Source of the DNA: an uncultured bacterium
GTDB lineage: Bacteria > Patescibacteriota > Minisyncoccia > Phycocordibacterales > UBA9973
DNA: 64,000 bases
Reading direction: 5' to 3'
Assembly: GCA_937903035.1 (NCBI GenBank)
Contig: CALCZP010000004.1
Location: 84,465-148,464, forward strand
Position numbers and translations under genes: made by a program
Part shown: in pieces, positions 9,001-59,689 of the stretch
How positions within the stretch are numbered: position 1 is the stretch's first letter
How the letters are laid out: each line of letters opens with the position of its first letter
Notes under the pieces: generated by a model
The model's database searches: none
Told to the model about the DNA's origin: nothing
Seen by the model: only the letters and a program-made list of their open reading frames with translations

Positions 9001-9006
9001 TAAATC

Positions 9007-9048
9007 ACATACAGAAAAAGCCCCCGATCGGGGGCTTTTTCTGTATGT
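9007..9048. terminator. bidirectional rho-independent terminator ACATACAGAAAAAGCCCCCGATCGGGGGCTTTTTCTGTATGT (fully palindromic)
   Basis: Perfect 19-bp arms around a GATC centre with flanking A/T runs. It lies between the rpsJ stop (9052) and the 8746-9000 ORF stop. Confidence 0.75.
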
Positions 9049-9051
9049 GAT

Positions 9052-9390: not shown

Positions 9391-9477
9391 AGTTGTAAGG
9401 TGCTCGGTGCGGATCGTGATCTAGGTGATGAGTTCGAATGTTTTCATCTCGGAGACCCGGTGTCCAACACCATGAGA

Positions 9478-10671
9478 TTATTTGATAACTTTGGTAACAA
9501 CTCCTGCACCAACGGTCTTGCCACCTTCACGGATAGCGAAACGCATCTGGTCTTCAAGAGCAACTGGTACAACGAGCTTCACGGTGATTTTCACTGTGTC
9601 GCCAGGCATAACCATTTCTGTTCCTGTAGGAAGTGCAACATCACCGGTAACGTCAGTTGTACGAACGTAGAACTGAGGCTTGTAACCGTTGATGAATGGG
9701 GTGTGACGACCACCTTCTTCTTTCTTGAGCACGTAGATTTCAGCTTCGAATTCGGTGTGAGGAGTTACTGAGCCAGTCTTTGCGAGCACCTGACCACGAG
9801 TAAGGTCATCCTTTTTAACACCGCGGAGGAGAATACCTGCGTTGTCGCCGGCCATACCACTATCGAGCTGTTTGTTGAACATTTCGATACCAGTAACGGT
9901 AGTCTTCATGGTGTCTTTAATACCAACGATTTCTACTTCTTCACCAACTTTCACCTGACCACGTTCGATACGACCAGTTACCACAGTACCGCGACCTTCA
10001 ATTGTGAAGATGTCTTCGATTGGCATGAGGAATGGCTTGTCGAGATCACGAACAGGAACTGGGATATAGGTGTCGAGCGCGTTTGTGAGCTCAAGCACCT
10101 TCTGTGCCCATGGATCTTCCATTGAAGTAGCTTCAAGACCCTTAAGACCTGAACCACGGATAACCGGGCAGTCACGGTCAAAGCCTTGCTTCTCAAGGAT
10201 TTCACGGATTTCTTCTTCAACGAGTTCGATCATATCTGGATCATCCACCATGTCGCACTTGTTGAGGAACACAATGATCTTTGGCACACCAACCTGCTTT
10301 GCAAGGAGGATATGCTCACGAGTCTGAGGCATCGCACCATCAGTCGCTGCAACCACAATGATTGCACCGTCCATCTGGGCAGCACCGGTAATCATGTTCT
10401 TGATGTAGTCAGCGTGACCTGGGGCATCAATGTGCGCGTAGTGACGAGTCGCTGTTTCGTACTCATTGTGCGAAATGTTGATCGTAATACCACGTGCTTT
10501 TTCTTCAGGTGCACCGTCGATTTCGCCGATACCCTTGAGCTTTACTTGGTTTCCGTTCATGTTCAAGACATGAAGGATTGCCGCGGTAAGCGTAGTCTTA
10601 CCATGGTCAACGTGACCGATAGTACCTACGTTTACGTGTGGCTTTGAACGGTTAAATGCTTCTGCAGCCAT
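9478..10671 (-). CDS. tuf: elongation factor Tu
   Basis: 397 aa with [22 protein letters not shown]. Confidence 0.97.
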
Positions 10672-10808
10672 AAACTTTAATTAACTAATTTTCTCTAATA
10701 AACAAACAAAAACAACGCAAAAATATGCGTAGCGATTCATGATAGCCCCGAATACGGGGTATGTCAAATAAAAAAGCCCCGCGTATAGCGAAGCTTTTGG
10801 TCTTTTAC

Positions 10809-11207
10809 TTAATTAATTGGATCAAACAACACCTTTTGTACTTTGATAAAAACTTCAAACATTCTTTTTGATAGTTTTCCAAATAAAATACGATCAAGAC
10901 GTGAAGGATGTAATGCGAGCTTTTCTGGAGTATTATGCTTAACAGTAAATACAGCAACCGGTTCTATGTTTTTGTAATCCTCTTGGATCTCCTTGATCGA
11001 ACCCACAATAAGCATAATGTGAAGATACTTCCCTCTGAGGTGGGTAGCTATGGTGATCAATTCTTTCTTTTCAAATTCCAGTTGTGTAAGTCTAATTTGA
11101 CCGTGATAACTGATGATTTGAGCAACATATCCACTATCAATAACTTTGTATCCAGAAGTTATCTGTGCCAATAAATTGAGCATCCATTGTTCATGTACTT
11201 TTTCCAT
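10809..11207 (-). CDS. hypothetical protein inserted between fusA and tuf
   Basis: 132-aa ORF with no recognisable motifs. It has its own flanking hairpins. Confidence 0.45.
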   Translation of the reverse strand: MEKVHEQWMLNLLAQITSGYKVIDSGYVAQIISYHGQIRLTQLEFEKKELITIATHLRGKYLHIMLIVGSIKEIQEDYKNIEPVAVFTVKHNTPEKLALHPSRLDRILFGKLSKRMFEVFIKVQKVLFDPIN

Positions 11208-11257
11208 TGTTGTATATTTTTTCTACACATTACCACTATTCCCTATTTTGTCAAAAC

Positions 11258-11286
11258 AAAACCACCCATATAGCATGGGTGGTTTT
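11258..11286. terminator. hairpin AAAACCACCCAT-atagc-ATGGGTGGTTTT downstream of fusA
   Basis: 12-bp stem read directly, 14 nt past the fusA stop on the minus strand. Confidence 0.5.
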
Positions 11287-11299
11287 GAATGAGATCTAT

Positions 11300-45560: not shown

Positions 45561-46925
45561 TTATATTCCGAAACTTTGAAGTTTGTTTTCTGGAGGTTTG
45601 TGCGTTCCATTCTTTATTGCTTCGGAAACTTTTCTGTATTCATCACCAAATTTCTTTCCAATCTTTTCAAACTCCGAAGGCTTCAGTTCTTTTGGACGAT
45701 TATATCGATACCAGCATCTGTATCGTATTGGCAGATCAGGATAATCTTTCATATTCACATAGGCGATATTCTCTATCTTTTCTGGTGGCTTATATTTATT
45801 CGCATTTGCAGGATTTTTTAGAATCATCATTTCTTTGAATGCCTCCTCGACATGCTTCCATGGTTGAGAGTTGTATCCATCTTCATCATCCAAGCTCATA
45901 CTGAAATCGCAATGACCATCATCTTGCCCAGGTATATACCAAATCTGTCCGTGTGCCCACATTGGAGCTGATATCTCAAAATCCGAAGCCTTGTCTCCTC
46001 CAGGATGTATTGACTCATCGTGTTTTTCTTCCATGTAGTAGTCGACGGATACAGTCGACATATCGAGCAAGTATTCGCGAGAAAAAATTGTATATAAACC
46101 GAATCTATCTGTGCCCGGAACACTCTTTTCCAAATCCTTGATTGATTTTGCGTCAGGATACCTTTGAGGCCAAAGTATTCGGTTACGATCGTCCAGAAGT
46201 GGATACGCTTTGAATAAGCCTGGCATTTCCCCATGCTTTATTCCTTTGTACAAAGTGATCATTATTGAACTTGGATGAAGCAGGTTTCCTAGAACAACAA
46301 TGTTTGTCTTCTCACTTCCGATAGACCAAATCTCTCCCATAAACCAATCATGAAAGAGACGTATCTGTTTGCCATCTTGGAATGATGTCATATCTTCCAT
46401 GTCATCACAGATGATGAGATCGGGACGATGATTGCGATACTTTAGTCCACGAATATTCTGTAACGCTCCGATGCACATGATTTTTGCTCCGTATTTCGGT
46501 ATCTCAATTGTAAACGCACCCCAATCTTCCTTGCTCGCTTGGAATGGACCAAGATCGTTTTTCAATAGCTCGTTCTCTTCAAGTTCTTGTTTGATGCTGT
46601 TGAAATGAGACTGTGACTGAACTCTGGTTTTAGACATGATTACTATAAACTTTTTCTGATGTTTTCCAAGAATACTCCACAGAGCATTAGAGAGGTTCAG
46701 AATGGTCGATTTTCCTGAACCTCGAAATGCCATGAACACGTTGAGCTTGTGTTGGTATTCTTCTGTAATGCGGAACATCTCCTTATGGAACCATGCGAAC
46801 TCGTACGTGATATGTCTCTGAAGATAGATACGGCAAAATGCCTCGTGATTTTCATATACGAGTGCTTTTCGTACGGCAACATCATTGATGATTGCCTGTT
46901 TAAGTTCAGGAGACAATTCTTTCAT
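45561..46925 (-). CDS. phage terminase large subunit-like ATPase/nuclease
   Basis: Walker A FRGSGKST, Walker B DLIICDDMED, and a C-terminal nuclease-like acidic region. Confidence 0.75.
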   Translation of the reverse strand: MKELSPELKQAIINDVAVRKALVYENHEAFCRIYLQRHITYEFAWFHKEMFRITEEYQHKLNVFMAFRGSGKSTILNLSNALWSILGKHQKKFIVIMSKTRVQSQSHFNSIKQELEENELLKNDLGPFQASKEDWGAFTIEIPKYGAKIMCIGALQNIRGLKYRNHRPDLIICDDMEDMTSFQDGKQIRLFHDWFMGEIWSIGSEKTNIVVLGNLLHPSSIMITLYKGIKHGEMPGLFKAYPLLDDRNRILWPQRYPDAKSIKDLEKSVPGTDRFGLYTIFSREYLLDMSTVSVDYYMEEKHDESIHPGGDKASDFEISAPMWAHGQIWYIPGQDDGHCDFSMSLDDEDGYNSQPWKHVEEAFKEMMILKNPANANKYKPPEKIENIAYVNMKDYPDLPIRYRCWYRYNRPKELKPSEFEKIGKKFGDEYRKVSEAIKNGTHKPPENKLQSFGI

Positions 46926-46927
46926 GG

Positions 46928-47314
46928 CTACTTAAAGTGAGATAGGGCCTCTTCGAGGAGTTCCTTTTGGTGCTGGTTAAGTTCGACTTTTTTCTGAGCA
47001 CGAATAAACATATCTTTCTTCTCCTCAGACATGTATGCTTTATGTCTGTTTCTGAGCCAGAATGCCACTGCTTGAAATTTCTTCTCTTTCAAGAGGGCGA
47101 CGAGCTGACTTTCAGATAGATCGTTTATATACTCCACACCATCGATCCTTGCGTTTTCAACATCGGTCTTGAAGTCATCGCTTTCTTCACACCAGCGGTA
47201 GAAAGTAGCTCTTGATATCCCGACTTTGGCACAAGCATGACTTGTGATTGGGACGGCACGTAGTTGTTCAAGCAGAAGTTCTTTCTGCTTCTTTATTGTT
47301 TTTACAGTAGCCAT
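46928..47314 (-). CDS. terminase small-subunit-like HTH protein
   Basis: HTH ACAKVGISRATFYRWCE. It is adjacent to and co-oriented with the large terminase. Start placed at the internal Met. Confidence 0.5.
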   Translation of the reverse strand: MATVKTIKKQKELLLEQLRAVPITSHACAKVGISRATFYRWCEESDDFKTDVENARIDGVEYINDLSESQLVALLKEKKFQAVAFWLRNRHKAYMSEEKKDMFIRAQKKVELNQHQKELLEEALSHFK

Positions 47315-47315
47315 A

Positions 47316-48638
47316 TTAGTTGATCTTCTTACGCTTTTTACCAGTCTCTTTCTCCCAGCGACGCATAATGACTTCGGCATAAACGTGTGATTTCTCCATA
47401 ACAAAGCATCTTCGACCCATCTTTATCGAAGCGATGAGAGTTGAACCAGAACCACCGAATGGCTCAAGGATGAGATTGTCTCTTTTGGTCAAAACTTTGA
47501 TGTATGGAATGAGAAGCTCAATCGGTTTTGTCCCGAAGATTATCTCTTGCCCTGATGATTTCTTATCTGCGGCTGGATGAGCAATGAAATCGGTAGGACA
47601 AATTTTCTTTCCTTTCTCATACTGCTCCCAGTGAGGTTTTCCTGCTGTGGCAAAGAGAGCATTCTCATACTCATTCTGAAAAATCGCATCTTCTTCTACT
47701 AGATTAAGAGGTGTGCTACCAGAGTTTCCAACCAAAGCGATATCTGTCTTGTTGAAGAATTTGTACTTAGACGAAAATCCCTGCATACGATTCGACACAT
47801 GCCACGTGATGGTGTTTCTATACTTCCAATGCTTCTCAAGAGCAGTCCAAATCGTCTTTAGATTTTTTGGATTCTCAAAGATGATGATTGAGAAGTCGGG
47901 CTTTTGCACTTTAGCAACATTTGCCATCCATAGATCCGAGAAGTTGTCCGGCAATACATCAGTCTCAAGATAGCGACGATTCTTCTTTGCTCCGAATCCA
48001 ACAGTTGGACCATCTTTACCTCGACCTTTTCCTTTGAGGTAATTAAGAATATATGGCGGGTCAGTGAGAACCATATCAGCTTTGTTTTCACCCATGAGTT
48101 TAATCATGTCAGCCTCAACAGTAGAGTCACCAATCATGATTCGAGAACCATCGAGGTCGTACACATCTCCTTTCTTTGCTTTGACTGTGATATCTAGCTT
48201 GTCGAGTTCCTTTTGGAGATCAAACTGTTCCTCATTTATTTCCGCAGGAAAAATATCGTCGATTTCCTCTGAGCTAAAACCGATATCTGTGAGAAGTGAC
48301 TCATCGAATTCAGCGAGGAGATCAAGATCAAACTCTCCTTGGTTTTTATTGAGTCGCAGGTTGAGTTCAGACTCCTTTTCAGGTGTGAGATTAACAAATA
48401 CGACAGGCATATTCTTGTACCCAAGCTCTTTGCAGACTTCAAGTCTGAAGTGACCGCCAACCACAACGTTCTTTCGGTCGGGATGGGAATTAACGATAAT
48501 GGGATCGACGTTGCCAAACCTCTTGATGCTCTCCGTGAGACTCTTCTTTTGTTCATCGCTCCACTTGCGTGGGTTCTTGTCGTTTGCGACAAGGCTGTCG
48601 ATTGAGATGTACTCAATCTTTAGATTTTCTTTATGCAT
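47316..48638 (-). CDS. ParB-like nuclease domain fused to an N6-adenine/N4-cytosine DNA methyltransferase
   Basis: N-terminal ParB/Srx motif (NPRKWSDEQKKSLTESIKRFGNVDPIIV) and an MTase with DPPY and EPFGGSGST. Confidence 0.85.
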   Translation of the reverse strand: MHKENLKIEYISIDSLVANDKNPRKWSDEQKKSLTESIKRFGNVDPIIVNSHPDRKNVVVGGHFRLEVCKELGYKNMPVVFVNLTPEKESELNLRLNKNQGEFDLDLLAEFDESLLTDIGFSSEEIDDIFPAEINEEQFDLQKELDKLDITVKAKKGDVYDLDGSRIMIGDSTVEADMIKLMGENKADMVLTDPPYILNYLKGKGRGKDGPTVGFGAKKNRRYLETDVLPDNFSDLWMANVAKVQKPDFSIIIFENPKNLKTIWTALEKHWKYRNTITWHVSNRMQGFSSKYKFFNKTDIALVGNSGSTPLNLVEEDAIFQNEYENALFATAGKPHWEQYEKGKKICPTDFIAHPAADKKSSGQEIIFGTKPIELLIPYIKVLTKRDNLILEPFGGSGSTLIASIKMGRRCFVMEKSHVYAEVIMRRWEKETGKKRKKIN

Positions 48639-49020
48639 ATACTTTGCTTTTTAATTAATTTCTAAAAAGCAAAAGACCATCTTTATCGTTAAGTTTCCTT
48701 AACTGCAAAGATGGTCTTTCGAGAAGCGGTGCACGACTCAAAAAACACTCTTAACTTTACAGTTAAAAGAAATTTCTTTGAGCAGTGTAGGAATATAACC
48801 TTCAGCATTTCCTACCTTAGTAGGGGTCTGCGAATCTATATCCAGCCGCTGTGAAGAATGATTGAAAGTGTAGAGAGTTCCTCCTAGTAGGAGGGTTTTC
48901 CCAGCCGTCAATCCGATATGAGGATGTCAATTGCTCTGAAAGTATTATCTACCTAACTAAACAAAAATACAAGACGATGTTTAGTTAAAGAATACATGAA
49001 AACCCTTTTTTAATTTGTCC

Positions 49021-49959
49021 TTATACTAAAAGGCTTTTCTTAAGTTCGGTCATTACAAAATCCTTAAATATAAGACAGTTATCCACAACTTGCTTAAGTA
49101 TGTATTCTTGTTCCTCAAACTCTTTTTCGAAAGAAACAGGTTCTACCTCCAATCTAAAACTTACTGATTTACCAGTCATGACCAATTCCATATTTGGAGG
49201 TAGCTTATTATAGTCTTGAAGTAATTCTTCATATTGAGAAGCCATGCCACTTAACTCAAGATCAACATATCCTTTCTCCATCTTATGAATAAGGCGTGTA
49301 TTTTTTAAAAGCCAGAAGGGACTGAAATACACAAAAGAAGATGCTGTCGGCTTTACTTTAGGTTGAGGCATATTTAATTCCTGTAATGTGCCTGATATAT
49401 ACAAATAATATTTCTTCCAAAACTCTGTAACAACCTCATCCTTTATAGCTTGATATCCTCTTCGTTCTTGTTCAATCGCAAGACGAAGAATTTCTGATTT
49501 GTACCATGATCGTAAAGAGGCGTCTTTAGAAAACCAAGTAAGTATTTCCTCATAAGAAACAGAGTACTCAAACTCACTTTTATTATCAATATAAGCCTTA
49601 GGAGCAACAAGAATGACCGCGGTCTCAATATTAGGTCCAGCAAGAAGTTCTGCACGCTTCATGTATCGATCATACTGAGCATCTTGAAACATAGCGTCAA
49701 CTTTGTTTTCAATTAGAAGAAACAATTTCTTTTGATTAAAAACAAATTCAGCTTGAATGTCAGTCTCTCCGAGCCCTGCGGTTGTCACACTTCGATATGC
49801 TTTTGAGAATATAAACTCTGGCTTACCAACAACTTTTAAAAATAACTTTTCTAAGCCTGTATTTGCATATAGTTCTTCTAATATCAATAAATCAATATCT
49901 CGTTCACGCACGGATTCGACTATCGGGAATGTTGCACCATTATTTTGAATTGCCTCCAT
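49021..49959 (-). CDS. protein with an N-terminal RecB/Cas4-like PD-(D/E)xK nuclease domain and a C-terminal domain of unknown function
   Basis: ERDIDLLILEE (motif I/II), ETDIQAEF, LLIENKVDA (ExK) and FQDAQY (QxxxY). Confidence 0.5.
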   Translation of the reverse strand: MEAIQNNGATFPIVESVRERDIDLLILEELYANTGLEKLFLKVVGKPEFIFSKAYRSVTTAGLGETDIQAEFVFNQKKLFLLIENKVDAMFQDAQYDRYMKRAELLAGPNIETAVILVAPKAYIDNKSEFEYSVSYEEILTWFSKDASLRSWYKSEILRLAIEQERRGYQAIKDEVVTEFWKKYYLYISGTLQELNMPQPKVKPTASSFVYFSPFWLLKNTRLIHKMEKGYVDLELSGMASQYEELLQDYNKLPPNMELVMTGKSVSFRLEVEPVSFEKEFEEQEYILKQVVDNCLIFKDFVMTELKKSLLV

Positions 49960-49964
49960 AATAG

Positions 49965-50867
49965 TTATTTCCTCCAGAAGATTAGCGACTTAAAGAACCC
50001 TGTGACTCGCTCTGTAAATGTTGGCTTTGGAGCTTCTCCCACTTTCGCAGGCGTAACTGGCTCTTCAACCTCGGTAGTTGTTGAGACCACAGGCTCAATC
50101 ACTTTTAGTGTCTCGACCTTTGGTTTCTGTTCAGCTTTTGGAGTAGGTTTAATTTCAGAAGCAGGAGTATTAACAACAACCTCTTTTACCTCCTCAATGA
50201 CTGGAGGGGTTGTTGTAGCTTTCTGTGATTTTTTAGCAAAGAAGTCAGGATACTTAGCTCGATAGAGTTGCTCAACTTTGTAAGCGTTCACTGGATTCAT
50301 TTTCTGAAGCAGTTTGAACTGAGCCACCTCTTGATCATCGGGGAGCGATTCAAGCCAATCGAAATATTCTCCGATGGTTATCTGCTTTTGTGGAGGCTGG
50401 ATTGCTTGCTCGTATACTTTGGTGTACTTGTCGTATTCGAGTTGCTGAATCTTGAGCTTGAGTTCGGCGATTTCAGCCTCTTTTGCTTTCATATCAATTT
50501 GAGATTGATATGAAGACCTTTGAGATTCTAGGTCAGCAATCTGTTTGGAGTACTTGGTATCAATTTCAGAAAGCTCCGCCTTGATTTGCTCCGTCAGACC
50601 ATAGGTGCCAGTGAGATAGTTTTTCTTGGCATCTCGTTCGTTCTTTAATTCAAGAATTCTGTTATCAATGTTTCCAATTGATGATGCAGAATTATTTTGC
50701 AATTGTGCCTCAAGTGATTTGAGACGATATTCTAAAGCTGACTTTTCCTCCTGCTGTTTGATGGATACATCTGCGGGCAGATAGTTATAGTCGGTTGCGT
50801 GTGCGATGGTTGCTTGGAATACAAATATTCCTAGCACGAACACGCATGTTCGTATGATTTTGTTCAT
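49965..50867 (-). CDS. secreted coiled-coil protein with a Pro/Thr/Lys-rich C-terminal region
   Basis: Signal peptide MNKIIRTCVFVLGIFVFQATIAHA, long heptad-like segments, and a PTPKAEQKPK tail. Confidence 0.5.
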   Translation of the reverse strand: MNKIIRTCVFVLGIFVFQATIAHATDYNYLPADVSIKQQEEKSALEYRLKSLEAQLQNNSASSIGNIDNRILELKNERDAKKNYLTGTYGLTEQIKAELSEIDTKYSKQIADLESQRSSYQSQIDMKAKEAEIAELKLKIQQLEYDKYTKVYEQAIQPPQKQITIGEYFDWLESLPDDQEVAQFKLLQKMNPVNAYKVEQLYRAKYPDFFAKKSQKATTTPPVIEEVKEVVVNTPASEIKPTPKAEQKPKVETLKVIEPVVSTTTEVEEPVTPAKVGEAPKPTFTERVTGFFKSLIFWRK

Positions 50868-50871
50868 AAGC

Positions 50872-51042
50872 CACTGTAGCGGTTTTAGCCTATTAACTGA
50901 TAATAGGCGGAGAATCTTGAGTCTTGCGACTGAAGACTCCTCGCCATTGTGATCCAACCTTTCGGTCAGACCCATATATCCTTTCGGATACACGACCGCT
51001 ACAGTGACTCTGACGAGGAGTCTTCAATACTGTAGCGGTTTT
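50872..51042. repeat. interleaved repeat system A1-B-A'-B'-A2 in the leader of the 49965-50867 gene
   Basis: A1 CACTGTAGCGGTTTT at 50872-86. B TGAAGACTCCTCG at 50931-43. A' ACCGCTACAGTG at 50995-51006. B' CGAGGAGTCTTCA at 51014-26. A2 ACTGTAGCGGTTTT at 51029-42. Confidence 0.75.
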
Positions 51043-51185
51043 GCTATTCCGACCATATCCTAGGAAACTAAGGGTTTTCTAGGGGTTAGGTCTTTGTTGT
51101 ACAAGAACATGATAGCAAATTTTTGGCTATCTTTCTAGACTTTAGCTTACATTTAGGGAGTTGCGAAGCCTGAGTTGTCGACAGT

Positions 51186-51731
51186 CTATTTTGTCTTCTT
51201 TTGCGAACCAAGACCTTTCATTAGATATTCCTTTTCATGACCATGGACCTTGTCCATAACAGCAAGTAAATCCTCAAAAATATTAAAAGCTTCTCGAAGG
51301 TGTTCACTGGCTTTGGTTTGAACTTTACTGTCATAACTTGCCTGATCTTTAATATCTTTCATTTCAGAGTAATCAACTAATTTATATTCTGCTTCAACAT
51401 TGTGCAAAACAAGATTCCTGCTCTTCTTGAATTTACTTATCCTCGAATAAAGTTTTTCATCTAGCACATCCTTGTTTTTCAAAACCAAAAAGATTGCCAT
51501 ACCATCGAAACCAACACGCCCTTTTATATTATGAAGATGGTTAATAAGAGATTGCGCTTCAAAAGAGTTGAAAATCTGTCTCAAGATTGATTCACCAGTA
51601 TTATCAATAATTGAATCAGCACCTGCGAATGCTTGAGCAAAATAACCCTTATTTGCTGGATCAAGCACGAACTTACCCCAATCTATTGAGATACCAGAAT
51701 ATTTACCATCCCATGTGACTCTCGATTCCAT
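51186..51731 (-). CDS. hypothetical protein, last gene of the CHAT operon
   Basis: 181 aa. Its start lies 2 nt from the stop of the 984-aa gene. Confidence 0.5.
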   Translation of the reverse strand: MESRVTWDGKYSGISIDWGKFVLDPANKGYFAQAFAGADSIIDNTGESILRQIFNSFEAQSLINHLHNIKGRVGFDGMAIFLVLKNKDVLDEKLYSRISKFKKSRNLVLHNVEAEYKLVDYSEMKDIKDQASYDSKVQTKASEHLREAFNIFEDLLAVMDKVHGHEKEYLMKGLGSQKKTK

Positions 51732-51733
51732 AA

Positions 51734-54676
51734 TTATTTGAGTACATCTTTTAGCCCCCAGAACATACTGCTTCCTTTCTCAATCAGGACGTTAATGAGA
51801 TCTTCGACCTTAGCCTTAAACGAAGGATTTTTGTAGATAATTTCTAGAGCTTCTTTAATTTCTCCATCAATACTGAATAAAGGTGCACGTCGATTCGTGT
51901 TCAACTCGTCTTCATTCAACAAATACTGCTTAATGACACCTAAGGTACTTTCAGGATCAATAGTTGCGAATATTTTCAAACGTCGAGTAAGCCCATAATC
52001 CCAATCAATATCACCTTTTGATTTCTCAAGAGTTATTGCAAGATTCTTGATGATGATTTTCTCATCAATTATCTCCTTATCAGGATTCACCCAAAATCCA
52101 AAACCAGAGAAGGCTTTCGGCTCAATCGGAATACCTGTTGAAATAATCCAATTCCAAAACTCTACAAGTTTATCCTTGCTTACATTGTTTTCCTTAAACC
52201 AATCATCGCCAGCCTGACTTCGAGTGATACAACTTCGACCAATAAAGGATACGAATTCGTAATGACGAGCTTCGTTTGGTGTCTTCCAAAATAGTTCAAA
52301 GAGTGGATCAGTAATTTTGAAATCAAAATGAGCATAAGCCAGTGCCAAATGGACAGCCAGTGTCTCATCAAGACCTTTCAAATATTTCCTATCTGGATAA
52401 ATATTTGGATTTAGCTTTATCGCATACTCGTAATAGCCACGAAGTTCATCAAATAACTCCTTGTACAGAGAACTTGCCAGGTATCCTTCCCAAGTAGCAA
52501 AATACAGTTTTTCTTTTCCTGATTCTTTAGGGAATATCTTCGATAGGAGTCCTTTAACAAAAGTAATGTCACGGAAGTAGAATGACGCAAGGAACTGACC
52601 AAGGGTGAATCGAACCGCATTCGATGTTTCTGTATCAAGAACCTGCTCAAACAAAACCTTAACTTCATTTGAAAGTGTCTTGTTGCTTTCGTTGTAAGCA
52701 AATTGGACAAAAGCTCGATACGCCTGTCCTCGAACGGAATTTATCGCAACATGAGCAGGTTCATTGGACTCACGCTTATCATCTTCAACATCAGGACTGC
52801 TCTTAATGGTAAAGAGATATTTGATGATGCTGAATATTTTTGCCTGATTATCTTTGAATGTATTTGAGTCCTTGATGGTTGCAAGTATCTCAAGAAGAAC
52901 ATCCGCTATAGATTTATGGACGGTTATCCAATCAGCAAGATAAACCCGCTCTTCCATTGGCTTAAACTCTTCTTTCTCACCCGATTGTCGAATGAGATCA
53001 AAGAAATTAATAACCTGTATGAATTGCTCATCTGTGAACGATTCCTTTGCCCTCAAACTGTCTTCAACTTGTCGCAGTATTGAGTAAACATAGTTTGGAG
53101 AAATAACACCCCTGTCAAAAAACTTATTAAGGTTTGATAGATAATCAGCCTTTCGAGCTTTAAAGTCTTCCTTAATGGCATCACCTAAGCCTTCGGGACC
53201 ACGAGGACTTAAGAAATCATCATTCTTATACTTTTCCTTCAACACCGCTGGAGATGCGTCAGTTTTCAAATGATCAATGAGAGCATCAATGGTCATTTCT
53301 GATGGATTAAATGGTGTTTTGTGATTCACAATACCTCCCATTCCGCCCATGACAGTAGGATGAGGAGTAATCTGACCATCTTCTAACAACTTTCCGAAGA
53401 TGGACTCAGCCTTTGTAATTTCTTCAGGAGTTAGGTACTTTTTTATATAAGTAAGTATCTCTAAACCGTCACGTTTCCTCCATTTTTCTTTATCAGCATC
53501 GTCTAGTTTTGCTCCGTAGTATTTAATAACATTTTCAACATATTCTCGTTGCTCGGTATCCTTATCTAGAGCGTTAAACCCAGCAATCAACCCCTGGTGA
53601 TATTCAGCTCCTGTATCAATCTCAAAGTAGCGTTCACCAACATTAAACACACGGAACAAGAATTCCTTTATCTCCGACTTAAACGCATCAGGACATCGTG
53701 TAATTGCATATAACTTAAGCCTCCAAGAGGTAAGAGCGTCGGGTAATGTGGCAATATTTTCTAAATAGATGCGACGAACCTCTGCGACATCATCACACTT
53801 ACCGCCAAGAATTATCTCAATGAGAGTTTTTATTGTTGCTATGAAATTCTGAATATCTTCTCGGAAATGAGACCTCTTGTCCGTATCTAATTGTAGTGTG
53901 AATACACTCACATCGAGTAGATAGAATGGCTCTGACTTGTCAAAGACGGTTCCGTCTTTTTCTACACCAATGTCAGTAATTTTTGTAAGGATTTCAGACA
54001 ACAACTTCAAAAACTTTTCCTTATCGGGATTGTTTTGATCAAGAATAAGTTCAAATATTCCAGTCTCGCTTACATCACCGAGATAGAATAACTTATCTGT
54101 TATTGAGAAACGCTCAATGTTGGCAAACTCTTCTTTATCCCTAACCGTAAGTACTACTCTAGCGAGATCGTAGATTGCCTCATAATCCTTTTCTTGAGCA
54201 AACTTCTCAGTCATCTTCTTGTATTCATATCCGGAACGACCAAAACGAGACATGAGTTTCAACCAGTTATCTGAATACATTTTTGGAAGAATCTTCTTTA
54301 TCTGAGCAACTGGCAAAAGACCAGTGATCCAGAAGAACCTGTCGATGACCTCAGGGTTGAAGGTATCTTTTGAAATTGGTGTTGAAAGAATTATCTCAGC
54401 GACTAATTCAGGTAGTTTTTCTGCCATTCGAGTAAGATACTCAAGTTCAGAAAGACGATATCCATATTTACTAGGATCTTCCGACTTCTTTTTTAATTCA
54501 TCAAAAAGACCGTTATCAAAAAACCACTTAAGCCAAGCTTCGTTTGCCTTCGAAAATAGATAGCGCTTTGAGTCTTCATTGCTTTCGATAAAATTTTTTG
54601 CAACTTCAATAGATGCAACTGATGGGCCAGCTGTTACGAATTCGTCTATTTTTTTGTGTATTTGAAGTTGGTTCAT
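51734..54676 (-). CDS. large (about 980 aa) predicted alpha-helical protein of unknown function, translationally coupled to the CHAT protease
   Basis: ATG (MNQLQIHKK) 4 nt after the CHAT stop. The protein is Leu/Lys/Glu-rich and helical. No NTPase motifs seen. Confidence 0.55.
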   Translation of the reverse strand: MNQLQIHKKIDEFVTAGPSVASIEVAKNFIESNEDSKRYLFSKANEAWLKWFFDNGLFDELKKKSEDPSKYGYRLSELEYLTRMAEKLPELVAEIILSTPISKDTFNPEVIDRFFWITGLLPVAQIKKILPKMYSDNWLKLMSRFGRSGYEYKKMTEKFAQEKDYEAIYDLARVVLTVRDKEEFANIERFSITDKLFYLGDVSETGIFELILDQNNPDKEKFLKLLSEILTKITDIGVEKDGTVFDKSEPFYLLDVSVFTLQLDTDKRSHFREDIQNFIATIKTLIEIILGGKCDDVAEVRRIYLENIATLPDALTSWRLKLYAITRCPDAFKSEIKEFLFRVFNVGERYFEIDTGAEYHQGLIAGFNALDKDTEQREYVENVIKYYGAKLDDADKEKWRKRDGLEILTYIKKYLTPEEITKAESIFGKLLEDGQITPHPTVMGGMGGIVNHKTPFNPSEMTIDALIDHLKTDASPAVLKEKYKNDDFLSPRGPEGLGDAIKEDFKARKADYLSNLNKFFDRGVISPNYVYSILRQVEDSLRAKESFTDEQFIQVINFFDLIRQSGEKEEFKPMEERVYLADWITVHKSIADVLLEILATIKDSNTFKDNQAKIFSIIKYLFTIKSSPDVEDDKRESNEPAHVAINSVRGQAYRAFVQFAYNESNKTLSNEVKVLFEQVLDTETSNAVRFTLGQFLASFYFRDITFVKGLLSKIFPKESGKEKLYFATWEGYLASSLYKELFDELRGYYEYAIKLNPNIYPDRKYLKGLDETLAVHLALAYAHFDFKITDPLFELFWKTPNEARHYEFVSFIGRSCITRSQAGDDWFKENNVSKDKLVEFWNWIISTGIPIEPKAFSGFGFWVNPDKEIIDEKIIIKNLAITLEKSKGDIDWDYGLTRRLKIFATIDPESTLGVIKQYLLNEDELNTNRRAPLFSIDGEIKEALEIIYKNPSFKAKVEDLINVLIEKGSSMFWGLKDVLK

Positions 54677-54680
54677 AATT

Positions 54681-55718
54681 TTATACACATGAATATAGAA
54701 GTGGAATATACTCTCTCTTCTTCGGGCCTGAATAATATGATCCTAAAGATGTTTTATATACCTCCTCAATTTCTTTCCCAGTCGTAAGATTTTTATAGAA
54801 TAGTTCTGTAAATTCTTTTGCAGAAAGTTCACCAACAGGATCTCGATACGCGATTACATAACGCGAACAACCAGATTTGATTATTTTAAAAGCAAGACTC
54901 TCTTTGTTTAAAATTCCACCCCCAGAATAGCAAAGTGACAGAAAAATTAATTTTTGATTACTATCCTTTATAAGTTCAACAAAATCATCTGGGGAAAATT
55001 TTTTTGTCTCTTTATATTTTGTATGGTCGTCATCTTCCAAACAAAGATTTCCATCCTGATCACCGTGCATAACAATATGAACCAGCGAATAATCCTTCCA
55101 AGAAACACCCTTAATCGACTCAGTAGTTGTGTGTTTTAATAGTAAAATACTATCAACTCGAAAATATTGCTGATTATTTTCAATAAGAAAATGTAAAGAG
55201 TTGTATATAGATTTAATCTCATCATCCATGACTGCCTTCAAGTCAGATCCCACACCTTCATGGGCATGAGACATAAGCATTACAAGATTATTGTCTTCTT
55301 TTACTTGGGGCTCTCTAACTGGGGTAGAAACTTTTCTTACTATATATAAATTATTATCTTTGAGATTTTCCCATGGAAGCTCGAGAAATACAGAAAAATC
55401 AGATCTGATTGTTAGCTGATCATCTTCTAAATTTTCAGCAATTTTAATTTCCTTATTTACGAATTCTAAAACCTTCTGAAGGTCTGGTCCTTGTTTCGAG
55501 AAAACAGGATTAATATCTGAACTTTTACCTATACCAATTTCTGGTGTTACAACTGTTGTTACGTCTTTGTTTCTTAAATACTCACTATGAAAATCATCGA
55601 ACGATATTAATACAAACTGACCGTTAGATTTATTGGTTTTAACACTTAAATACAAACCTCCTTTTATTGATTCTTTTTCGCCATCTTTAACTTGTTTAAG
55701 TTCGCAATAGATTTCCAT
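54681..55718 (-). CDS. caspase-like (CHAT / peptidase C14 fold) protease with an N-terminal domain of unknown function
   Basis: His-Cys dyad in caspase order: SLVHIVMHGDQDG ... about 40 aa ... KLIFLSLCYSGGG. Confidence 0.6.
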   Translation of the reverse strand: MEIYCELKQVKDGEKESIKGGLYLSVKTNKSNGQFVLISFDDFHSEYLRNKDVTTVVTPEIGIGKSSDINPVFSKQGPDLQKVLEFVNKEIKIAENLEDDQLTIRSDFSVFLELPWENLKDNNLYIVRKVSTPVREPQVKEDNNLVMLMSHAHEGVGSDLKAVMDDEIKSIYNSLHFLIENNQQYFRVDSILLLKHTTTESIKGVSWKDYSLVHIVMHGDQDGNLCLEDDDHTKYKETKKFSPDDFVELIKDSNQKLIFLSLCYSGGGILNKESLAFKIIKSGCSRYVIAYRDPVGELSAKEFTELFYKNLTTGKEIEEVYKTSLGSYYSGPKKREYIPLLYSCV

Positions 55719-55739
55719 AATTTACTAATAATTCAACGC

Positions 55740-56264
55740 CTAAGAAACAGAGGGTAATCCTAGTCGGTTCAGAGTTATTGCCTCGAAGAAATAATCACAA
55801 TCCACCTCTTTAATATAAGCGAGCACATCTTTATACGCTGGTGCCTGAAACCACTCACTTAGAATATAGATATATTCAACTTTAACGCCTAGAGAATTGA
55901 GAAGTTTTTCATACTGTCGTTTTTTGAAATGACATGTCTGTAATTTTTCATCAACAGACCCTGCAACATTTTGAAATTTGATTTCAATTACATAAAAAGA
56001 ATTGGTTGCCAATACAAAAATAGCATCATCGGGAAGGAGTTTTTTGGAAAGTATTTCCTTATGATTTACACCTTTCTCCTCTAAAAATTTATATAGACGA
56101 TTTTTCCGAAGATTAAGAGCGACTTTTTCTCCTTTAAAAAGAATCGAGCCATCTTCATGCACCTCATAACCAGGCACAGTTTTAAGCACTTCAAGAAAAT
56201 CCACTTTGCCCTCAAAGTGAAGTCCTGATTTTGTATTTGCTCCTCCTACGCCACCAATTTTCAT
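55740..56264 (-). CDS. small PD-(D/E)xK nuclease: either the restriction endonuclease of the adjacent DpnII-like R-M system or the first gene of the CHAT operon
   Basis: LPDDAIFVLATNSFYVIEIKF gives a PD...ExK motif. It lies 21 bp upstream of the CHAT gene on the same strand and is divergent from the Dam-like MTase. Confidence 0.55.
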   Translation of the reverse strand: MKIGGVGGANTKSGLHFEGKVDFLEVLKTVPGYEVHEDGSILFKGEKVALNLRKNRLYKFLEEKGVNHKEILSKKLLPDDAIFVLATNSFYVIEIKFQNVAGSVDEKLQTCHFKKRQYEKLLNSLGVKVEYIYILSEWFQAPAYKDVLAYIKEVDCDYFFEAITLNRLGLPSVS

Positions 56265-56334
56265 ATAACGTGATTATCTCACAAAAACGCCCTTAAATCT
56301 AGGATATAAAGGTAAAAAATGATAAAATGAAATT

Positions 56335-57252
56335 GTGAAGACAGATAACGTAAAAAAAGCAAAACCATTTCTAAAATGGGTCGGTGGCAAGGGTCAATTA
56401 TTGACTCAATTTCAGAGTCTCTTTCCTAAAAAATACAACTCGTATTTCGAACCATTTATTGGTGGAGGTGCTGTCTTTTTTTCTATCAACCCACAAAAAG
56501 CACACATAAACGATATAAACAAAACACTAGTTCAGACCTACACGCATATTAAGAATGATGTAGAGAAATTAATAAAATCTCTTGCAAAACTTGAAAAAGA
56601 ATTCCTTGCAAAAGACACTGAGGCACGAAAAGAATTCTATTACTCGATACGAGAAAAATACAACTCTTTATCTCACGAGGATTTCAAGAAAAGTCTCTAC
56701 TTCTTATTCTTTAACAAGACTGCGTTTAATGGTGTCTACCGAGAAAATTCAAAAGGTGGATTCAATGTGCCGATGGGTAGCTATAAAAATCCTAAAATCG
56801 TAGATGAGGAAAATCTTAGAGAGGTTTCCAAAATGCTTTCAAACACCAAAATAACAAGTGGTTCATTTGTTGATGCTGTAAAGAATGCAAAGGCTGGTGA
56901 TTTTGTTTACTTCGACCCTCCATACCACCCACTTTCCGAGACATCTAGTTTTACAAGTTATAGCAAGGATTCTTTTTCTAAAGATGATCAGATAAAGCTC
57001 CGAGATTTATTTGTAGAACTCGACAAGAGAGGTGTATACGTAATGCTCAGTAACTCAAGTGCGCCTTTTATTCAAGAAATATACTCTGGATACAAACAGA
57101 TTCCTGTTTATGCTAGTCGAATGATCAACTCAAAAGCAGATAAGCGCGGAAAGATATCAGAAGTCGTAATAATTAATTACGATCCGCAATCAAATCTTCA
57201 AAGCGTTTTTGAGAAAGATTTAAGTATTTCTTCTCAGTATCAATACCTATAA
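56335..57252 (+). CDS. Dam-family (alpha-class, D12) N6-adenine DNA methyltransferase
   Basis: KPFLKWVGGKGQLL and DPPY motifs. The start is GTG at 56335. A C-terminal extension overlaps the convergent MTase gene. Confidence 0.85.
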   Translation: MKTDNVKKAKPFLKWVGGKGQLLTQFQSLFPKKYNSYFEPFIGGGAVFFSINPQKAHINDINKTLVQTYTHIKNDVEKLIKSLAKLEKEFLAKDTEARKEFYYSIREKYNSLSHEDFKKSLYFLFFNKTAFNGVYRENSKGGFNVPMGSYKNPKIVDEENLREVSKMLSNTKITSGSFVDAVKNAKAGDFVYFDPPYHPLSETSSFTSYSKDSFSKDDQIKLRDLFVELDKRGVYVMLSNSSAPFIQEIYSGYKQIPVYASRMINSKADKRGKISEVVIINYDPQSNLQSVFEKDLSISSQYQYL

Positions 57253-57994
57253 ATCTTCGTCCGTGTTTCTTCGCGGCGATTCCTGTAGTTGAGCTTCCTG
57301 TAAAAGGGTCGAGAACTATGTCTCCCTTATTTGTACTAGCGAGTACGATTCGCTCAAGAAGTGAAAGTGGTTTTTGCGTTGGATGTTTGGTGAACTTCTT
57401 CTCTTCTTTCTTTGGTGGGTTAACTGCCCAAACCGAACGCATTTGTAAGTTCGGCTTCTTTATAAAATCTTCTGGCCACTCGCCATTTTTCATTAGTTCA
57501 TAATTGAAAGTGTGTTTTGCTTTCTTATGTTTTCTAGCCCAAAGAATTGTTTCGTGACTTGCTGTAAAAAATCGACAACTTAGATTTGGAGATGCGTTCG
57601 GTTTGAACCAAGTAATATCATTCAAAACATGGAAACCAATTGACTGAATAGCATGGCCACATTGATAGATAGAATGATAGGTACCACTAACCCAAATGGT
57701 GCCATGGGGTTTTAAAACACGATAACAAGCTTCTAGCCATCTTTTATGAAAGGCATAGTCAGCATCGAAGCCTTTGCTTTTATCCCAATCACCTTTGTTA
57801 ACGCTTACCATTTTCCCTGCGTGCACAGTAAAACCTCCATTTGAGAGCATATATGGAGGATCTGCAAAAATCATATCGATTGAGTTTTCTGGGAGAGTAT
57901 TTAAAAGCTCTATTGAATCAGCCAAATAGAGCACAAAATCCTTGTGCATAAAATACGGTTTTTGTTTTATTGAAGCTAAAATCTTTTTTGCCAT
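57173..57994 (-). CDS. beta-class N6-adenine DNA methyltransferase, DpnA / M.MboIC-like
   Basis: DMIFADPPY...VSVNKGDWDK...HPTQKP...DPFTGSSTTG, collinear with DpnA-type methylases. Confidence 0.85.
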   Translation of the reverse strand: MAKKILASIKQKPYFMHKDFVLYLADSIELLNTLPENSIDMIFADPPYMLSNGGFTVHAGKMVSVNKGDWDKSKGFDADYAFHKRWLEACYRVLKPHGTIWVSGTYHSIYQCGHAIQSIGFHVLNDITWFKPNASPNLSCRFFTASHETILWARKHKKAKHTFNYELMKNGEWPEDFIKKPNLQMRSVWAVNPPKKEEKKFTKHPTQKPLSLLERIVLASTNKGDIVLDPFTGSSTTGIAAKKHGRRFIGIDTEKKYLNLSQKRFEDLIADRN

Positions 57995-58117
57995 TTATAA
58001 GTACATTTTAGCTTAAAAGACATAAAACCTGAATAAAATTTACCTAAACTTACCTACAGTTTATCTACTTCGGACGCTCTAGACTCCTAAGAGGTTCAGC
58101 GTCATCAATGTGTTTGT

Positions 58118-59443
58118 ATGAAAATACAAAATCCGCTACAAGTGACGCCTGACGAGGTTGAGGCAAAACAACCGATTAAGTACTGCTTATATGCTCGTAA
58201 ATCAACCGAACAAGAAGATAAGCAGGCATTATCAATTGAATCGCAAGTCAGAGAGATGCAGGCTCTGGCTGAGCGAGAGAAACTGAACGTGGTCGAAATT
58301 AAGCGAGAAGCACACTCCTCTAAAGAAGTCGGACAGAGGCCTGTATACAATGAACTTCTCGCTGAAATCAAACAAGGAAAGTTTAATGGGATACTAACAT
58401 GGGCACCAGACCGCTTATCGAGAAATGCCGGTGACTTGGGAGCGGTAGTAGACCTGATGGATCAGAAGCTTCTTCTAGAGATCCGCACCTATGGACAGAA
58501 ATTTACAAACAATCCAAATGAAAAGTTCCTCCTCATGATTCTCGGATCACAGGCAAAGCTTGAGAATGACAACAAGATGGTGAATGTGAAGCGAGGACTC
58601 AGAGCAAGGTGTGAGATGGGCTTATGGCCATCAGTACCTCCAACAGGATACTTGAGCAATCCTGATAGAAATAGAAAATGTGAAGTAATAACCGATCCAG
58701 CAAGAGGTCACATTATCAGGCAAATGTTCGAGAAAGTGGCATATGATGGCTGGTCAGGACGAAAGCTGTATAAATGGATGGCACATGACCTCAAATTTAA
58801 AACAAAGAATGGCAAACCATTAACATTGAGCAATATTTACATAATTCTCAAAAACACTTTCTACTACGGAGAATTTGAATACCCAAAAGCAAGTGGACAA
58901 TGGTATGTCGGAAAGCATGAACCTGTGATAACCAAAGACTTGTACCTACAGGTTCAAGATAAAATTACATCGGATTCAGTAATACATGCACAAGACAAGG
59001 AGTTTGCATTCACAAAGATGATGACATGTGGATTGTGTGGATCGGGAGTGACGGCAGACGAGAAATTTAAGAAACTCAAAGATGGTACAACGGCACGATA
59101 CGTGTACTACGGATGCACGAGATTTAGGGATAAAGATTGTCCGTGCGGATACATACGAGAAGAAGACCTGATTGAACAACTCGCAAATATACTGGATACC
59201 GTGTCACTGAACGAGATTGGGATGAAAGACAAGATCAAATCAGAGATTGAAGCACATACAGAATTTCAAGAATCAGTACTTGGAAAAGCAGTTAAAGAGA
59301 AGATAAAGATTAAGGAGGTCGATATACGAAACTTCGCCAAGCATATCTTAAGAAAGAGACCGATCTACGAAAAGAGAGAGCTATTAAGCAATCTGAGAAG
59401 CAAGTTGGTGTTAAAAGACAAACAGATAAGCATGATGAATTAG
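58118..59443 (+). CDS. large serine recombinase (resolvase catalytic domain, recombinase domain, zinc ribbon)
   Basis: Catalytic CLYARKSTEQ Ser motif, LSRN, recombinase domain, and CGLCGS...C zinc ribbon. Confidence 0.85.
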   Translation: MKIQNPLQVTPDEVEAKQPIKYCLYARKSTEQEDKQALSIESQVREMQALAEREKLNVVEIKREAHSSKEVGQRPVYNELLAEIKQGKFNGILTWAPDRLSRNAGDLGAVVDLMDQKLLLEIRTYGQKFTNNPNEKFLLMILGSQAKLENDNKMVNVKRGLRARCEMGLWPSVPPTGYLSNPDRNRKCEVITDPARGHIIRQMFEKVAYDGWSGRKLYKWMAHDLKFKTKNGKPLTLSNIYIILKNTFYYGEFEYPKASGQWYVGKHEPVITKDLYLQVQDKITSDSVIHAQDKEFAFTKMMTCGLCGSGVTADEKFKKLKDGTTARYVYYGCTRFRDKDCPCGYIREEDLIEQLANILDTVSLNEIGMKDKIKSEIEAHTEFQESVLGKAVKEKIKIKEVDIRNFAKHILRKRPIYEKRELLSNLRSKLVLKDKQISMMN

Positions 59444-59454
59444 GCAAACAAAAA

Positions 59455-59478
59455 ACCACCCGAAGGGGTGATTTTTTG
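59455..59478. terminator. short hairpin CACCC-gaag-GGGTG plus T6 after the recombinase gene
   Basis: Read directly. Weak stem. Confidence 0.4.
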
Positions 59479-59618
59479 TTCTGGATACTGCGCTCAGCAG
59501 GTATGCAATTTACGGAATAGTATCGTGTGTTTTACCTTAGTTCGAGCCCATGACTGGTGCTCAGAACTTTTATTCCTAAACGGCGATTTTAGCCGTCTAG
59601 GTAGGTCTCACATGACTG

Positions 59619-59689
59619 CTGCCGAACCTGGACTCGAACCAAGATAAACGGTACCAGAAACCGTTGTCCTACCATTAGACGATTCGGCA
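59619..59689 (-). tRNA. tRNA-Gln (anticodon CTG)
   Basis: Minus strand TGCCGAATCGTCTAATGGTAGGACAACGGTTTCTGGTACCGTTTATCTTGGTTCGAGTCCAGGTTCGGCAG folds as a cloverleaf: 7-bp acceptor with U1-A72, D-loop with GG, anticodon loop TTCTGGT, T-loop TTCGAGT, discriminator G. Confidence 0.8.

Follow-up and report, generated by a model that had tools for sequence, protein, structure and literature searches.

In translational riboswitch platforms, such as that of the Escherichia coli thiM thiamine pyrophosphate (TPP) riboswitch, a strand of the sensor helix pairs either within the sensor or with the initiation region, and hok-type toxin mRNAs are inhibited by a fold-back between their 5′ and 3′ parts and refold after processing. 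The canonical 11-nucleotide (nt) receptor of the GAAA tetraloop has the sequence CCUAAG/UAUGG. The LOOT RNA (Rfam RF03000) comes from the Weinberg/Breaker comparative-genomics series and has been termed a 'metagenomic-based RNA' (PMC7779021). In the literature covered, outside which the original supplementary description lay, LOOT appears only in a remark on covariation and in Rfam release notes, the main text of the paper that defined it is silent on it, and we found neither a function assigned to it nor a 3′ extension described. Here we describe a LOOT RNA in a 64,000-nt (64-kb) stretch of DNA from an uncultured bacterium of the Patescibacteriota (GenBank contig CALCZP010000004.1, positions 84,465 to 148,464 of the forward strand), which as a whole we call the window. 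It lies on the minus strand, in the leader of a gene for a secreted protein of 300 amino acids (aa). A first reading of the locus from its letters alone (the original prediction) had noticed interleaved repeats, in ascending order A1, B, A′, B′ and A2, next to the start codon of this gene. These repeats are parts of LOOT and of an extension on its 3′ side, and in the minus-strand RNA they give three alternative helices (A2:A′, B′:B and A′:A1) that are conserved by compensatory change and nearly equal in predicted energy. We consider it probable, with appreciable doubt, that LOOT and its extension form a cis-acting leader switch, in which the LOOT fold would free the start region and a refolding would occlude it.

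LOOT and its 3′ extension

The Rfam model aligns over its full length (model positions 1-121 of 121) and on the strand of the downstream gene, at 47.4 bits, where the gathering score is 46.4 (E = 7.9e-6 over the 64 kb; the coordinates of this and the other features are collected in Table 1). Despite this thin margin the assignment is secured by synteny, because the syntenic leaders of orthologous genes score higher (49.5-82.4 bits). When species-representative genomes were scanned with the protein family, 11 orthologous loci emerged, all in metagenome-assembled genomes of Parcubacteria/Patescibacteria, and in nine of them LOOT lies directly upstream on the same strand (49.5-82.1 bits). A further ten LOOT leaders and one 5′-truncated copy came from metagenome loci and contigs that were fetched by protein identity. 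One of these ten (L027, 41.1 bits) falls short of the gathering score. The same-species contigs L001-L007, all identical, carry no comparative signal. Pattern scans of viral contigs yielded at least five LOOT RNAs, four of them confirmed by Rfam at 51.9-82.4 bits and the fifth (L076), the one real LOOT among the 120 matches listed for a looser 16-base pattern, recognized by inspection. The comparison that follows covers 25 LOOT leaders from Parcubacteria genomes, metagenomes and viral contigs, 24 of them checked numerically (20 orthologous and 4 viral-contig leaders) and L076 by eye. Pairs were counted in a register-anchored block alignment; a MAFFT alignment of the LOOT cores was too poorly structured for a custom covariance model.

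The minimum free energy (MFE) structure of the core alone has the same four hairpins, P1 to P4, as the Rfam alignment, both in the window and in 17 of 20 relatives. Three of the repeats fall within P2: A2 (arm proper 51039-51029) and A′ (51005-50995) form the arms of its outer helix, and B′ is its apex. B and A1 lie beyond the 3′ end of the Rfam model. The outer P2 helix is 100% paired, and 9 of its 10 pairs show double-sided changes among 19 distinct leaders; it is to this helix that the covariation figure for the core refers. The P3 loop is GAAA in all 20 leaders compared, and the internal loop of P1 reads CCUAA[CA]/[UC]AUGG in 19 of them, the remaining one (L031) having the compensatory form UCUAAC/AUAUGA; the loop of P4 is GAAA in the window and variable in relatives. 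By every feature that could be tested, namely score, four-hairpin architecture, the GNRA loops and the CCUAA...AUGG loop, and compensatory changes, the element is a member of LOOT, a family that the original prediction had missed and that a search of Rfam, as it had proposed, brings out. The P1 loop of the window, CCUAAC/(A)UAUGG, we take to resemble the 11-nt receptor, from whose canonical form its last position and its size differ, and the invariant GAAA loop of P3 probably docks in it. The properties of the tetraloop and receptor module are described in PMC2275092.

All the repeats seen in the original prediction are where it placed them. The direct repeat ACTGTAGCGGTTTT is exact over 14 nt at 50873-50886 and 51029-51042, and its A1 copy ends 5 nt upstream of the ATG at 50867, which is the true start of the gene because all 33 homologues of the protein (93-33% identity, with a signal peptide) align from that methionine. 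The inverted copy A′ (50995-51005) is complementary to A2 at 11 of 11 positions, and against A1 the complementarity extends to 15 nt (50995-51009 with 50869-50883, 93% at the DNA level), the single DNA mismatch reading as a G·U pair on the minus-strand RNA. The 13-nt inverted pair B/B′ likewise extends, to 16 nt (50931-50946 with 51011-51026, 94% at the DNA level); in the minus-strand RNA a single ungapped register pairs 20 of 22 positions, with a predicted duplex energy of -31.5 kcal/mol. The 11-mer core of A occurs three times in the window, where 0.61 occurrences are expected by chance and 2 of 100 shuffles reach three, and the core of B occurs twice (0.19 expected); no further copy of either core was found elsewhere in the 64 kb, the region after the gene included. 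Folded in the minus orientation, the 241-nt RNA reaches -95.6 kcal/mol, compared with -57.3 +/- 4.6 kcal/mol for shuffled sequences (z = -8.3). The whole feature exceeds the span first noted: it begins with a promoter-like site at 51137-51109 and reaches the start codon at 50867.

The extension is conserved as pairing potential while its sequence changes. A segment directly after P4 that is complementary to the P2 apex is found in all 25 leaders, with 13-22 predicted pairs. For the 20 orthologous leaders, RNAduplex gives 13-22 B′:B pairs, of which 16-22 canonical pairs can be laid in one ungapped register, at energies of -21 to -33 kcal/mol versus -2 to -7 kcal/mol for H1, the small hairpin of the P2 apex, alone. 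Among the 19 distinct leaders 91% of cells are paired and 13 of 17 columns have double-sided changes, and pairing falls to 35-50% when the partner is slid. Fifty-four of 320 B′:B pairs (17%) are G·U, and since such pairs are mismatches on the other strand, the complementarity is specific to the minus strand. B engages 16-22 of the 18-27 nt of the P2 loop. Because the helix takes up nearly the whole loop, we judge B′:B to be an alternative to P2, more likely a competitor of closed P2 than a pseudoknot coexisting with it, on grounds of geometry. The original prediction had treated B and B′ as a pair separate from the A repeats, which could join them in a pseudoknot; the pairing stands, its independence does not, B′ being the apex of P2, and a B:B′ pseudoknot beside a closed P2 was rejected for the same want of loop.

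A1 is the second part of the extension: 19 of the 25 leaders contain an 8-12 nt copy of the 5′ arm of P2 that ends 0-5 nt before the start codon. The copy is exact over 9-12 nt in 14 of the 20 orthologous leaders, where it usually follows an A-run and ends 2-5 nt before the AUG; it exists there in seven sequence versions, each identical to the P2 arm of its own lineage. The five viral-contig leaders have a copy of 8-10 nt that ends 0-5 nt before the AUG of unrelated genes. A′ and A1 of the same locus form duplexes of -16.7 to -22.3 kcal/mol, versus a mean of about -5 kcal/mol across loci. Among distinct triples of A2, A′ and A1, canonical pairs fill 69 of 70 cells, a degree of pairing that none of 1000 shuffles reaches, and double-sided changes occur in 9 of 10 columns; counted by program, A′:A1 is 97.1% paired, as against 32-47% with the partner slid by 1-3 columns. 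The mutually exclusive pairing of A′ with A1 or A2 that the original prediction had proposed is thus kept in relatives as the sequences change, and the same holds for B and B′, so that both relations pass the test of conservation in homologues on which it had made its case depend. In one viral-contig leader (L048, minus strand, 3398-3380) a second partial copy of the 5′ arm of P2 (AAAUCCGUCCAA) directly follows the AUG, and arm copies thus flank the start codon on both sides.

The proposed leader switch and its rivals

The leader contains two strand exchanges, A2/A′/A1 and B′/B/B″ (B″ being a segment 3′ of B that can pair with it in a local tail hairpin), which are supported by covariation, mutually exclusive and nearly iso-energetic. 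Folds of the window with P2, B′:B or A′:A1 forced have energies of -91.7, -88.1 and -95.9 kcal/mol, and across leaders the corresponding folds are usually 1-8 kcal/mol apart and at most 13. In growing prefixes of the window RNA, the MFE structure has P2 up to 156 nt, B′:B at 160-180 nt, P2 together with the tail hairpin at 184-220 nt, and A′:A1 from 224 nt onward. In two relatives with a U-run at the end of B (L014 and L018), the MFE structure moves to B′:B exactly as the U-run is made. The outcome of refolding the minus strand, which the original prediction had suggested, is a strong fold with alternative states of near-equal predicted energy.

The switch that we propose would work as follows. 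In a first state, LOOT would fold as P1, P2 (A2:A′ with H1), P3 and P4, B would be parked in its own tail hairpin, and A1 and the start region would stay single-stranded and permit initiation. An open start region is expected to suffice because the organism rarely uses Shine-Dalgarno (SD) sequences (an SD-like motif precedes only 6 of 43 genes in the window). In a second state, B would invade the P2 apex (20 B′:B pairs in the window) and open P2, and the freed A′ would be captured by A1 through 15 pairs that end 2 nt from the AUG, so that initiation would be blocked. In relatives with a U-run, the B′:B helix ends directly at that run and may act as a long-range terminator, so that one and the same sensor could have a transcriptional output, a translational one, or both. 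Candidate triggers include a ligand or ion, a protein, a trans-acting RNA and plain slow refolding after transcription. That both states occur in vivo, that the first is on and the second off, that B′:B and P2 exclude each other sterically, and that the U-runs terminate transcription, we infer.

We prefer the name leader switch to riboswitch because it has no known ligand and the genes that it heads have no theme in common, even if the platform looks riboswitch-like: a structured domain in the 5′ leader, on the strand of the gene and downstream of a promoter-like site. The original prediction had offered an attenuator, a riboswitch or an RNA thermometer acting on translation initiation. What survives of this is the alternative pairing that covers the start region. 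Riboswitch in the strict sense says more than the evidence does, and the stem followed by a U-run that marks an intrinsic-terminator attenuator is present in U-run relatives and absent from the window. A thermometer was rejected, the occluding helix being 10-15 bp long, largely perfect and worth -17 to -22 kcal/mol, with no SD sequence.

In the window, the parts of the leader read most simply as belonging to one transcript. The TG-extended -10 element TGCTATCAT ends at 51109, about 16 nt before P1, in a consensus scan, and 21 of 24 related leaders have a -10 of the type TGnTAnnnT 15-24 nt ahead of P1. The predicted start of transcription is at about 51102, some 10 nt before P1. Between LOOT and the ATG of the window no terminator-like site was found on the minus strand, and B ends in UCUUC at the place where relatives have GCUUUUU(G); of the 20 orthologous leaders, 13 have such a U-run at the end of B. 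With the U-run replaced and no terminator-like site found, we take read-through into the gene as the default in the window. The simplest reading is therefore a single transcript that would run from about 51102 into the gene. The tails that follow LOOT are of three types: a short type, in which B ends in the U-run, A1 is lacking and the gene begins 11-25 nt later; a type with the U-run and a linker, in which A1 is present or absent; and the window type, in which the U-run has decayed to UCUUC, the tail hairpin B:B″ is conserved and A1 is present. The tail hairpin is kept, with some compensatory changes, in eight window-type leaders. Linker hairpins are also conserved with compensatory changes, which argues that the linker is selected as RNA.

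Several points weigh against this switch. Six of the 25 LOOT leaders lack A1, and four of these, the short forms, have a U-run at their end, 11-25 nt ahead of the gene, and could be terminated small RNAs (sRNAs) in their own right. If local H2 hairpins rather than B′:B served as terminators in the short forms, the logic there could be inverted. An internal promoter may also lie just upstream of A1, especially in the U-run forms, in which case A′:A1 would be intermolecular; we allow for this because leaderless or short-leader mRNAs seem to be in use in this genome, where -10-like hexamers stand directly before many ATGs. The whole case for switching is comparative and thermodynamic, and nearest-neighbour differences of a few kcal/mol are within the error of the model. 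B′:B and A′:A1 together make a pseudoknot whose steric feasibility is only estimated. The aligned blocks were extracted by maximizing complementarity or identity, which inflates the percentages of paired cells, and the cross-locus and slide controls correct for this only in part. Finally, LOOT has few conserved unpaired nucleotides beyond the tetraloop and the receptor, and the genes downstream of it are functionally unrelated, both of which are untypical of metabolite riboswitches.

The strongest rival grows out of these points. LOOT could be a separate sRNA that ends at or near B, with the gene expressed from its own promoter in the linker, A′ acting in trans as an antisense seed on A1, and B′:B serving to open P2 and so expose the seed. 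We regard this as unlikely, though it accounts for a good deal: the Rfam type of LOOT ('Gene; sRNA'), the U-runs at the end of B, the four short forms and the two other leaders without A1, and, by eye, A/T-rich -10-like hexamers before A1 in many tails. An SD-poor genome with -10-like hexamers near many of its ATGs also makes short or leaderless mRNAs plausible, and this weakens an argument that we had considered against the rival, that the short forms leave no room for a promoter, since such hexamers often stand directly before ATGs in this genome. The separate sRNA is opposed by the window and its closest relatives, which have UCUUC instead of the U-run and, before the ATG, no terminator-like site; by the linker hairpins, which are kept as RNA; by the constant position of LOOT, which in each of the 20 orthologous leaders shares the strand of the gene and precedes its start codon by 31-85 nt; and by the local hairpins before the U-run, which, read by eye, have only 3-5 bp in most loci. 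The Rfam type and the U-run forms agree with such an sRNA; the window type does not.

A second rival, which we hold to be quite improbable, is that LOOT is a single stable architectural RNA that does not switch, B:B′ and A′:A1 being tertiary, pseudoknot or multimer contacts, with a role in stability, localization or protein recruitment. The strong fold (z = -8.3) would suit such an RNA, the tetraloop with its receptor-like partner suggests a compact tertiary structure, and other ornate bacterial RNAs of the same discovery series are reported to form RNA-only multimers (10.1101/2024.12.08.627333). However, a duplex of B with 16-22 of the 18-27 nt of the P2 loop is more than a closed loop should allow on geometric grounds, H1 and B′:B need the same bases, and A2 and A1 compete for A′; two exact copies of an arm for one partner are what alternative pairing predicts.

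That the repeats act at the DNA level, as recombination sites, as a target-site duplication such as the original prediction had considered for a miniature inserted element, or as operator sites, is scarcely credible even in an integrated element with a serine recombinase beside tRNA-Gln and with direct repeats exact over 14 nt, given that the seven same-species assemblies are identical, with no empty, excised or inverted variant among them, that the 64 kb hold no additional copy and none past the gene, that one repeat lies inside P2 so that the supposed insert would split a conserved RNA, that the flanking copies co-vary with the internal inverted copy through seven sequence versions, and that the G·U pairs make the complementarity one-strand-specific. 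Operator sites for a DNA-binding protein were rejected also because the sequences differ between close relatives and G·U pairs are tolerated.

The gene, its setting and parallel leaders

Table 1. Positions of the leader features, the downstream gene and the flanking element (window coordinates, except where a locus precedes them).
Feature	Position	Strand	Description
LOOT core, four hairpins P1-P4	50951..51092	-	Full-length match to Rfam RF03000
P1 hairpin	51051..51092	-	Internal loop CCUAAC/AUAUGG, resembling the 11-nt GAAA-tetraloop receptor
A2	51029..51042	-	A-run and 5′ arm of P2 (AAAACCGCUACAGU)
P2 apex B′	51006..51028	-	Forms the small hairpin H1 (GACUC...GAGUC, 51022-51006) or pairs with B
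A′	50995..51009	-	3′ arm of P2 at 50995-51005; four more bases, to 51009, for pairing with A1
P3 hairpin	50973..50994	-	GAAA tetraloop at 50985-50982
P4 hairpin	50951..50972	-	GAAA tetraloop at 50963-50960
B	50929..50950 (core 50946-50931)	-	Directly 3′ of P4, complementary to the P2 apex, outside the Rfam model
Tail hairpin B:B″	50909..50940	-	GGAGUCUU...AAGAUUCUCC, inner GUC/GAC stem; local alternative to B′:B
Linker hairpin	50888..50908	-	GCCUAUUA-UCAGU-UAAUAGGC; compensatory changes at 3 pairs
A1	50869..50886	-	Repeats the A-run and the P2 5′ arm (14 nt at 50886-50873); pairs with A′ as far as 50869
Promoter-like site	51109..51137	-	Consensus match: -35 TAGAAA, 17-nt spacer, TG-extended -10 TATCAT (51114-51109)
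Upstream box	51138..51150	-	GUAAGCUAAAGUC (consensus CUAAGCUAAGGUAC in relatives); adjoins the promoter-like site, about 30 nt upstream of the TG-extended -10
Downstream gene	49965..50867	-	Encodes the secreted, largely helical 300-aa protein, whose family is conserved in Parcubacteria; start codon 50867-50865
tRNA-Gln	59618-59689		First in the stretch of about 14 kb, beside the large serine recombinase
Large serine recombinase	58118-59443		Next to tRNA-Gln
Non-LOOT structured leader	L009:2225-2455, L015:2313-2512, L021:972-1200		Leader of orthologous genes

Upstream of the promoter-like site, a CUAAGCUAAGGUAC-like box was recognized by eye in most long-form leaders, those of viral contigs included; besides the window it is present at L010-L013, L020, L030, L032, L033, L036, L037 and L047, and is kept although the upstream genes differ. 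It might serve as an operator or belong to the -35/UP region.

The 300-aa protein has no Pfam family, and an exact-sequence look-up found no match, public calls using upstream starts; a structure model is all-helical, with a predicted local distance difference test score (pLDDT) of 69 and a predicted template modelling score (pTM) of 0.41. The public calls of the gene (in the window, 49965-50993, and at L001-L004) give 336 or 342 aa and begin at the GTG at 50993 or at a similar site inside LOOT; these are artefacts of over-extension of the open reading frame into the RNA. In many genes of the window a TATAAT-like hexamer precedes the ATG by 5-10 nt, as in those with starts at 60674, 28053 (plus-strand start 27421), 18490 (plus-strand start 17333) and 42374, which suggests that leaderless or very short-leader mRNAs may be widespread in this organism.

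On viral contigs, none of the five LOOT leaders is followed by the coiled-coil gene for the secreted protein. What follows there is a 150-aa protein of unknown function, a 138-aa membrane protein, two proteins like PDC-S11 of PADLOC and a VRR-NUC nuclease, and no metabolic or transport theme is shared among the genes downstream of LOOT. All five of these leaders carry B (four numerically, L076 by eye). At the loci with flanking genes, LOOT lies within one or two genes of a module of a ParB-methyltransferase, a small terminase and a large terminase, in three orientations.

In the window the LOOT locus is held within a stretch of about 14 kb (45561-59689) that looks like an integrated mobile element. 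From the tRNA-Gln and the recombinase, its genes are, in order, two DNA methyltransferases, a PD-(D/E)XK protein, a CHAT-domain protein, proteins of 984 and 181 aa of unknown function, LOOT with the secreted protein, a PDDEXK_4 protein, a fusion of ParB with an N6/N4 methyltransferase, and small and large terminase-like genes; copper-ATPase and DUF305 genes follow. Among the open reading frames scanned in this stretch, no capsid or portal gene was identified. On the viral contig L047 (oriented 8517-11558), a homologue of the 984-aa protein (51734-54688 in the window) lies two genes downstream of a LOOT-led gene for a PDC-S11-like protein; the similarity was seen in a comparison of the N-termini only (QLEIHKRIDEF...). 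Because this homologue lies near a viral-contig LOOT, the 984-aa protein seems to travel with the same family of elements.

These surroundings lead us to a wider proposal, which we offer tentatively and with more doubt than conviction. The promoter and the leader may form a portable cassette on mobile, phage-like elements of the candidate phyla radiation (CPR), with LOOT as the sensor of an unrecognized class of cis-acting switch, in which two coupled strand exchanges would gate diverse accessory or defence-like genes through an output of the terminator or the initiation type. The trigger of such a cassette could be a ligand, a factor from the element or from an infecting phage, or timed refolding.

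Three orthologous genes (at L009, L015 and L021) have a different conserved structured leader of about 200 nt, for which Rfam gave no match at E <= 1 and none at E <= 5. Its parts are a long closing helix (GUUCAACUA.../...UAGUUGAAC), an inner segment complementary to the stretch just after the 3′ arm, which repeats the logic of B′ and B, and a copy of the 5′ arm that overlaps the start codon (GUGUUCAACUAUG). This leader may be an undescribed RNA motif with the same switching logic, and as a parallel to LOOT it supports the regulatory reading of the LOOT leader; it hints that what is conserved is the design of the switch and not the sensor. One further orthologue (L024:139-468) has neither LOOT nor this variant, and shows another inverted repeat upstream, CAACAAAUCAA ... 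UUGAUUUGUUG, followed by a terminator-like hairpin and a U-run.

Comparison with known systems

The locus gives LOOT a home, in genomes of Parcubacteria, of the candidate phyla radiation, and on viral contigs, beside a module of ParB-methylase and terminase genes, and a fixed position, in the leader of variable cargo genes after a promoter-like site. The switch proposed here also gives the family a putative mechanism that can be tested, with three conserved helices, held to be mutually exclusive, of which one would lie over the start region. If the proposed switch is real, it would add a class of regulatory RNA found so far in little-studied, largely uncultured bacteria and their mobile elements, and a form of translational control in organisms that largely do without SD sequences. 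There is a practical side as well: gene callers push the open reading frame into the RNA (336/342 versus 300 aa), and the 5′ ends of this protein family are often misannotated as a result.

Set against LOOT as described, the RNA of the window has the four hairpins, the CCUAA/AUGG loop in P1, the two-part P2 and the GNRA loops of P3 and P4. The Rfam model, typed as an sRNA gene, stops at P4, whereas here and in the 24 related leaders B follows, and A1 in 19 of the 25; and whereas the family is otherwise known from unassigned metagenome reads, the RNA here stands downstream of a promoter-like site in Parcubacteria genomes and viral contigs. The likeness of P1 and P3 to the GAAA tetraloop with its 11-nt receptor lies in the invariant P3 loop and in a P1 loop of the form CCUAA[C/A] / [U/C]AUGG flanked by C:G pairs; its last position and its size deviate from CCUAAG/UAUGG, and the docking is putative.

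With platforms of the thiM type the leader has in common that a strand of the sensor would be shared with the initiation region, and that its relatives carry platforms that look like terminators or would block initiation. It differs from them in having no evident pocket-like set of conserved unpaired bases, in heading mutually unrelated genes, in occluding not an SD sequence, which it lacks, but the 10-15 nt directly 5′ of the AUG, and in having two coupled three-strand exchanges and not one. Like hok-type mRNAs, it is predicted to form early local structures that give way to long-range pairings which would decide access to the start, and its MFE structure toggles in similar fashion as the prefix grows. 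The RNA family, the size and the genes are unrelated to those of hok, and an antisense partner or a processing step is known for none of the leaders described here.

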